A stretch of 64,000 bases of DNA. Source: Escherichia coli. Lineage in GTDB: Bacteria; Pseudomonadota; Gammaproteobacteria; Enterobacterales; Enterobacteriaceae. The notes beneath the pieces were generated by a model that was not told the DNA's origin, did no database searches, and saw nothing but the letters and a program-made list of their open reading frames with translations. Each line of letters opens with the position of its first letter. Position 1 is the first letter of the stretch. Positions 61,473 to 61,927 of this stretch are shown here, in pieces. Location: NCBI RefSeq assembly GCF_003334305.1, contig NZ_QOWS01000005.1; one strand, 5' to 3'. The position numbers and the translations under genes were made by a program.

Positions 61473-61712
61473 CCATTCAGGATGAGGCGGTAAGCTTCAT
61501 CCTGATATTCTTGCTTCAGTTGCGGTCCAGTTAATCATTCTAAATAACAACTGCTGAAATTATACGAATCGCGGTATGTATTTTAATTTATAACGATAAT
61601 ATTATTTTTATTTTCTGCAATGAACGTCACAAATAATTGTCGCTTAAGTTAAATTTATTTCAAATGATAATAAATATCAGTTCACTTATAATTTCTTGCT
61701 TTGTAATTTTAA

Positions 61713-61726
61713 TTGATAACGATCAA
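61713..61726. promoter_or_regulatory. FNR box upstream of ydhY
   Basis: TTGATaacgATCAA is a perfect match to the FNR consensus TTGAT-N4-ATCAA, about 200 bp upstream of the ydhY start. Confidence 0.75.
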
Positions 61727-61927
61727 TGTTAAGGGCTCAGAATAATCACATTATTTTTTCTCCTAACCATAAAGGATTAGTTTATCGGCGTTAAATCTTT
61801 TCTCATACACTATCGGGTTAGGGAAAATATCTGGTGTTGGGGACAGAGTCAGCAGCGTATTAGTTGAATGCTTAATATCAGGCTGCTGAATTGTCAGCAC
61901 TGTGTTTGCGAAGAGGATGCGAAATAA

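Follow-up and report, generated by a model that had tools for sequence, protein, structure and literature searches.

A palindrome of the FNR type lies in the intergenic region upstream of ydhY in Escherichia coli, roughly 200 bp from the start codon. This locus raises the question of whether the site is a working promoter element and, if so, what the long distance to the ATG represents. We examined it in a window of 64,000 nucleotides, meaning the whole stretch of E. coli DNA analyzed here, using sequence scans, shuffled controls, orthologous loci, and the published literature.

The fumD-ydhY gap and its palindrome

The gap is the exact interval 61473-61927 (455 bp), from the stop codon of the fumD ORF (fumD was formerly ydhZ) to the ATG of ydhY. 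Its GC content is 33%, versus 49% for the whole window, and falls to a minimum of 22-23% at 61600-61749. The features that frame it are as follows.

61263-61472, plus strand: fumD (formerly ydhZ), fumarate hydratase FumD, the upstream co-directional gene (69-aa ORF; RefSeq annotation in E. coli genomes)
61477-61505, plus strand: terminator-like hairpin directly 3' of fumD, a 12-bp stem followed by a T-rich tail (consensus scan; putative function)
61713-61726, no strand assigned: FNR binding site TTGATAACGATCAA with perfect consensus half-sites (sequence scan; published position -42.5)
61928-62554, plus strand: ydhY, ferredoxin-like 4Fe-4S protein, first gene of ydhYVWXUT (208-aa ORF; RefSeq annotation)
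62575-64000, plus strand: ydhV, aldehyde ferredoxin oxidoreductase family, cut by the window end (RefSeq annotation; start placed by coordinate transfer from K-12)

The original prediction, made from the sequence alone, had placed the palindrome in a long AT-rich region ahead of ydhY as the head of a ferredoxin/aldehyde:ferredoxin oxidoreductase cluster, and both the composition of the gap and the RefSeq order fumD, ydhY, ydhV agree with this. On the K-12 MG1655 chromosome, the genes run ydhT-ydhU-ydhX-ydhW-ydhV-ydhY and are followed by fumD, ynhH, pykF, and lpp, on the strand opposite to that of the window. A 1401-bp query from the fumD-ydhY-ydhV region was matched in all of the complete E. 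coli genomes searched (5426/5426) and showed 100% identity to E. coli strain H15, not to K-12. The 101-bp core promoter was absent from 38 of these 5426 genomes. In a few E. coli strains, such as 2017.17.01CC and N25, IS1 adjoins a deletion that takes out either the 5' end of ydhY with a portion of the promoter, or ydhY along with a portion of ydhV. Together, the IS1-linked deletions and the genomes without the core promoter indicate that the operon has been lost in a small minority of strains.

The palindrome TTGATAACGATCAA was found exactly where it had been predicted, with 10 of 10 half-site bases matching TTGAT-N4-ATCAA, and the pattern TTGATNNNNATCAA occurs once in the 64-kb window, namely at 61713-61726. 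Measured from its center (61719.5), the distance to the ydhY ATG is 208.5 bp, in keeping with the estimate of roughly 200 bp. A functionless chance match is the simplest alternative for such a site, and the 33% GC of the gap lends it some weight: dinucleotide-preserving shuffles of the whole window gave a mean of 0.12 sites for TTGATNNNNATCAA, with at least one site in 11 of 100 shuffles. When the 455-bp gap alone was shuffled, however, at least one FNR site appeared in only 0.18% of 5000 trials (P = 0.0018), and published occupancy of the site (ChIP-seq and ChIP validation), together with the conservation described next, already refutes this reading.

Phylogenetic footprinting argued in the same direction. 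A scan with the YdhY protein, restricted to one genome per species, yielded 30 loci from Escherichia, Citrobacter, Leminorella, and Limnobaculum, plus one MAG labelled Raoultella; the upstream region was included in 29 of the 30, one locus being cut by a contig end. The FNR half-sites are perfect in 26 of the 29 loci and carry one mismatch in the three Budviciaceae loci. They are thus kept in 29/29 loci from four genera, with variation in the flanks and in the four bases of the spacer, and we regard a chance origin as extremely unlikely.

CRP and FNR recognize related inverted repeats, and a site of this kind might in principle be used by CRP instead. Its half-sites, TTGAT and ATCAA with a 4-bp spacer, nevertheless have the FNR form rather than TGTGA-N6-TCACA, and both FNR ChIP and FNR-dependent expression have been published for the operon (PMC3688515), which makes use by CRP scarcely credible.

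Position and spacing of the core promoter

The literature places the palindrome in a promoter that is ordinary and well documented. In Table 1 of Myers et al. 2013 (PLoS Genet 9:e1003565, PMC3688515), ydhYVWXUT belongs to category 1, direct FNR activation, with an FNR ChIP-seq peak centered at 1,752,688, one FNR site, and the top site at -42.5; sigma70 occupancy and expression were both higher without O2. The same study credits Partridge 2008 for binding and two transcriptome studies for expression. According to its title and to papers that cite it, Partridge et al. 2008 (Microbiology 154:608) deals with regulation of ydhYVWXUT by FNR, NarL, and NarP. Furthermore, the FNR targets predicted by Lemmens et al. 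2009 (PMC2690998) include ydhY, where FNR binding was validated in vivo by ChIP. The K-12 equivalent of the palindrome is NC_000913.3 1754678-1754691. The ChIP-seq peak is given on an older K-12 sequence version, and we take the offset between versions to be about 1,976 bp here; with this offset, the palindrome center falls about 20 bp from the FNR peak.

The anaerobic activation proposed in the original prediction is therefore borne out by an FNR ChIP-seq peak and by sigma70 occupancy and expression that rise without O2 (Myers 2013), and ydhY expression is FNR-dependent in published data, contrary to the outcome that had been named as its refutation. The FNR site, its position, its occupancy, and its effect are all already known: they have been in print since 2008, with genome-wide confirmation in 2013. 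The original prediction was silent on this record. We assign a probability of about 95% to the reading that the site belongs to the published class II FNR-dependent promoter of E. coli ydhYVWXUT. Promoters of class II have the site centered near -41.5 (+/-4) relative to the transcription start; the value published for ydhY is -42.5. The K-12 promoter is the same locus, with an identical FNR site, -10 hexamer, Fur box, and 7-2-7 palindrome. The strain alone differs, and of the six positions at which the 455-bp gap departs from K-12, none falls within any regulatory site.

FNR occupancy, the -42.5 position, and FNR-dependent anaerobic induction come from the literature; the present analysis contributes that the sites exist, exceed chance, and keep a fixed spacing across genera. 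With the FNR center (61719.5) at -42.5, the transcription start is expected at 61762, giving a leader of about 166 nt.

61749-61754, plus strand: -10 hexamer CATTAT (-10 role assigned from its position)
61762, plus strand: predicted transcription start, +1 (calculated from the published -42.5; agrees with the -10 hexamer)

A hexamer of the form [CG]A[TC]TAT begins exactly 29.5 bp past the FNR center in 30 of 30 sequences and sits within the block AATAAYCACATTAT, which is conserved in the alignment. Even in the most divergent full-length E. coli copies that were inspected, the half-sites, the -10 hexamer, and the Fur box described below are invariant. The base at the predicted +1 is a C, not a purine, which we counted against the class II reading.

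The unusually long distance to the ATG could also mean that FNR binds a distant upstream site and that the real promoter lies near the start codon. This would conflict with the -42.5 position, which Myers 2013 (PMC3688515) gives relative to a known transcription start. Across the orthologous loci, moreover, the spacing from FNR to the -10 hexamer and from FNR to the 7-2-7 palindrome is fixed, while the FNR center and the ATG lie 138.5 to 241.5 bp apart, a variation of about 100 bp between species. A fixed core with a leader of varying length is the pattern expected if transcription starts beside the FNR site, and it argues against a promoter near the ATG. Neither the consensus scan nor the alignment revealed a conserved promoter-like element nearer the ATG, and we consider this alternative very unlikely.

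One further promoter-like sequence was discarded, a sigma70-like match at 61664-61692 (ATGATA-17-TATAAT, 10/12), because conservation of its TATAAT does not extend beyond this E. coli lineage. The -35 of this match shares bases with the Fur box, and the match may belong to the non-productive sites that typify the published "promoter island" at this locus. In vitro, the sigmaS holoenzyme transcribes the ydhY promoter better than sigma70, and the promoter was rpoS-dependent in one medium during stationary phase (PMC3141248). The in vitro preference suggests that the sigma factor used may depend on conditions.

According to the class II reading, a [4Fe-4S] FNR dimer would bind TTGATAACGATCAA at -42.5 when oxygen is absent, overlap the -35 region, and recruit RNA polymerase to the weak -10 hexamer CATTAT, with transcription probably starting near 61762 and producing the leader of about 166 nt.

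The leader and a candidate NarL/NarP element

From the distance to the ATG, the original prediction had anticipated a long leader or additional regulators such as NarL/NarP. Both expectations hold up: the leader measures about 166 nt, a conserved 7-2-7 palindrome lies just past the predicted start, and the title of Partridge 2008 names NarL and NarP.

61762-61927, plus strand: 5' leader, about 166 nt (predicted start)
61764-61779, no strand assigned: NarL/NarP-type 7-2-7 palindrome TAACCATaaAGGATTA, heptamers centered near +6 and +15 (12/14 versus TACYYMTnnAKRRGTA)
61910-61930, plus strand: nearly invariant translation initiation region GAAGAGGATGCGAAATAAATG (alignment of 30 loci)

Scanning the gap for the heptamer TACYYMT showed exactly one inverted pair with 2-bp spacing that stands out, at 61764-61779. 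Overall, the gap showed no enrichment for NarL heptamers (7 observed versus 11.2 expected at a score of at least 6/7). The score of 12/14 is reached by about 5% of gap shuffles (P of about 0.05), so support for TAACCATaaAGGATTA is drawn from its conservation: the palindrome begins 44.5-46.5 bp past the FNR center in 28 of 29 loci, and the Limnobaculum version is nearer the consensus (13/14). From the sequence, we infer that NarL/NarP would contact the bases at 61764-61779. Five Citrobacter loci carry an insertion of about 19 bp (e.g., TACCCGTGTTTAGGGTATG) directly 3' of the palindrome, and this insertion also forms an inverted repeat of NarL type, though with a spacing of 3 bp.

In the presence of nitrate or nitrite, the 7-2-7 palindrome (about +3 to +18) would most likely be occupied by phosphorylated NarL/NarP, which would then block initiation. 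NarL represses dmsA and frdA. References for this repression are cited in PMC4549865. The ydhY promoter resembles those of dmsABC and frdABCD, which likewise have a single FNR site over the -35 region (-41.5 and -45.5 in Myers 2013, Table 1) and anaerobic induction, and which are likewise turned down when nitrate is available. Unlike at those operons, the candidate NarL/NarP element at ydhY consists of a single compact 7-2-7 palindrome immediately downstream of +1.

A leader of this length could also house the main control, in the form of a riboswitch, an attenuator, or an sRNA target, with FNR playing a secondary part. The length itself, a terminator-like hairpin at 61884-61899 detected by the consensus scan, and the near invariance of the last ~20 nt across genera would be compatible with such control. 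Against it, an Rfam scan of 60900-62100 matched no family at E <= 1, and the leader fold was no better than that of shuffled sequence (z = -1.29). The central leader, including the hairpin, is unrelated sequence in Citrobacter and is missing from C. koseri and the Budviciaceae, and the hairpin was rejected as an attenuator on the grounds that it is unconserved in Citrobacter and deleted in C. koseri. Deletion of ryhB also had no effect on the operon (PMC7157518). Near invariance across the 30 loci is confined to the last ~20 nt, GAAGAGGATGCGAAATAAATG; this segment holds the Shine-Dalgarno sequence GAGGA (61913-61917) along with the start codon. It also contains a short direct repeat, TGCGAA...TGCGAA, and its conservation extends beyond the ribosome-binding site. 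Control mainly through the leader thus seems improbable. Given the lack of an Rfam match at this threshold, the fold z-score, and the unconserved central part, we conclude that the ~200-bp distance stems from a long leader, most of it unconstrained, and not from a structured regulatory RNA.

A conserved Fur box and an apparent combination of signals

The alignment further contained an invariant block at 61664-61679, which the original prediction had missed. Its core, TGATAATAAATATCA, agrees with the 7-1-7 motif of Fur, TGATAATnATTATCA, in 13 of 14 positions.

51958-51972, no strand assigned: perfect Fur 7-1-7 box TGATAATCATTATCA of the known Fur-regulated suf promoter, lying 46 bp upstream of sufA (52018-52386)
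61520-61835, no strand assigned: AT-rich tract with GC as low as 22%, roughly matching the H-NS-associated "promoter island" published for ydhY/ydhZ (from composition; coordinates approximate, using the assumed offset of about 1,976 bp)
61665-61679, no strand assigned: Fur-type 7-1-7 box TGATAATAAATATCA, center about -90 from the predicted start (13/14 versus TGATAATnATTATCA)

A score of 13/14 arose in 0.06% of shuffles of the 120-bp upstream region (P = 0.0006). The box scores at least 11/14 in all 29 loci uncut by a contig end, and its distance to the FNR center is 47.5 bp in 26 loci and 49.5 bp in the three Budviciaceae loci. Citrobacter sp. NCU1 carries a second, more divergent ydhY copy (88% identity), in the upstream region of which the FNR site is kept, the Fur-like box is weaker (11/14), and no good 7-2-7 palindrome is present.

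The Fur ChIP peak and Fur-dependent expression were again taken from the literature. Banerjee et al. 2020 (PMC7157518) count ydhYVWXUT among the operons that Fur regulates directly in CFT073 and report a Fur ChIP-seq peak at the operon in MG1655 too. In their Table S1, the fur-/wt RNA ratio of ydhY is 0.072 in CFT073 under anaerobic glucose-minimal conditions, indicating that Fur acts positively (about 14-fold activation in CFT073), and ryhB deletion leaves the operon RNA unchanged in the same strain. The Fur effect was measured in CFT073; operon RNA was below detection in MG1655 (PMC7157518). The Fur peak maximum lies at CFT073 coordinate 1910890 (Table S5 of the same study), 18 bp from the center of the Fur box (1910872) and 65.5 bp from that of the FNR site (1910824.5). 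As a positive control, the CFT073 sufA Fur box was centered 7 bp from its published peak. In addition, a Fur iModulon includes ydhY and ydhV (PMC10164565). The mode of Fur activation at the operon is not discussed by Banerjee 2020 (PMC7157518), and our literature search found no paper defining the ydhY Fur site or mechanism and no base-resolution footprint. From the conservation of TGATAATAAATATCA and its closeness to the peak, we infer that these are the bases Fur probably contacts.

H-NS has also been associated with this DNA. The ydhY/ydhZ promoter island (1752593_318) is H-NS positive (PMC3661553), and ydhYV-T is flagged as H-NS-bound and rises 2.5-fold on SlyA overproduction (PMC5797941). 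In the proposed mechanism, iron-loaded Fur on the conserved box at about -90 would be needed for full expression, and the AT-rich DNA around it is bound by H-NS. The ftnA gene is reportedly activated by Fur, which is said to counteract H-NS silencing there. With Fur-activated genes of the ftnA type, ydhY shares a positive RyhB-independent Fur effect, an upstream Fur box, and AT-rich, H-NS-associated DNA; unlike them, the ydhY promoter also requires FNR. A positive action of Fur from about -90, in turn, is not known to be shared by dmsA and frdA. By analogy with ftnA, relief of H-NS silencing by Fur would fit this context, but no support for Fur acting via H-NS at ydhY was found here or in the literature examined. 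At somewhat under even odds, iron-loaded Fur may co-activate a class II FNR promoter by way of the -90 Fur box, perhaps by relieving H-NS silencing.

Taken together, these results illustrate that reading raw sequence alone can correctly recover a regulatory site of textbook type. Footprinting adds a compact map in which oxygen (FNR), nitrate/nitrite (NarL/NarP), and iron (Fur) signals appear to be combined upstream of an oxidoreductase system. The conserved Fur box offers a ready target for studies of Fur activation and, if co-activation by Fur is true, the operon would require the absence of oxygen, sufficient iron, and the absence of nitrate, all at once.
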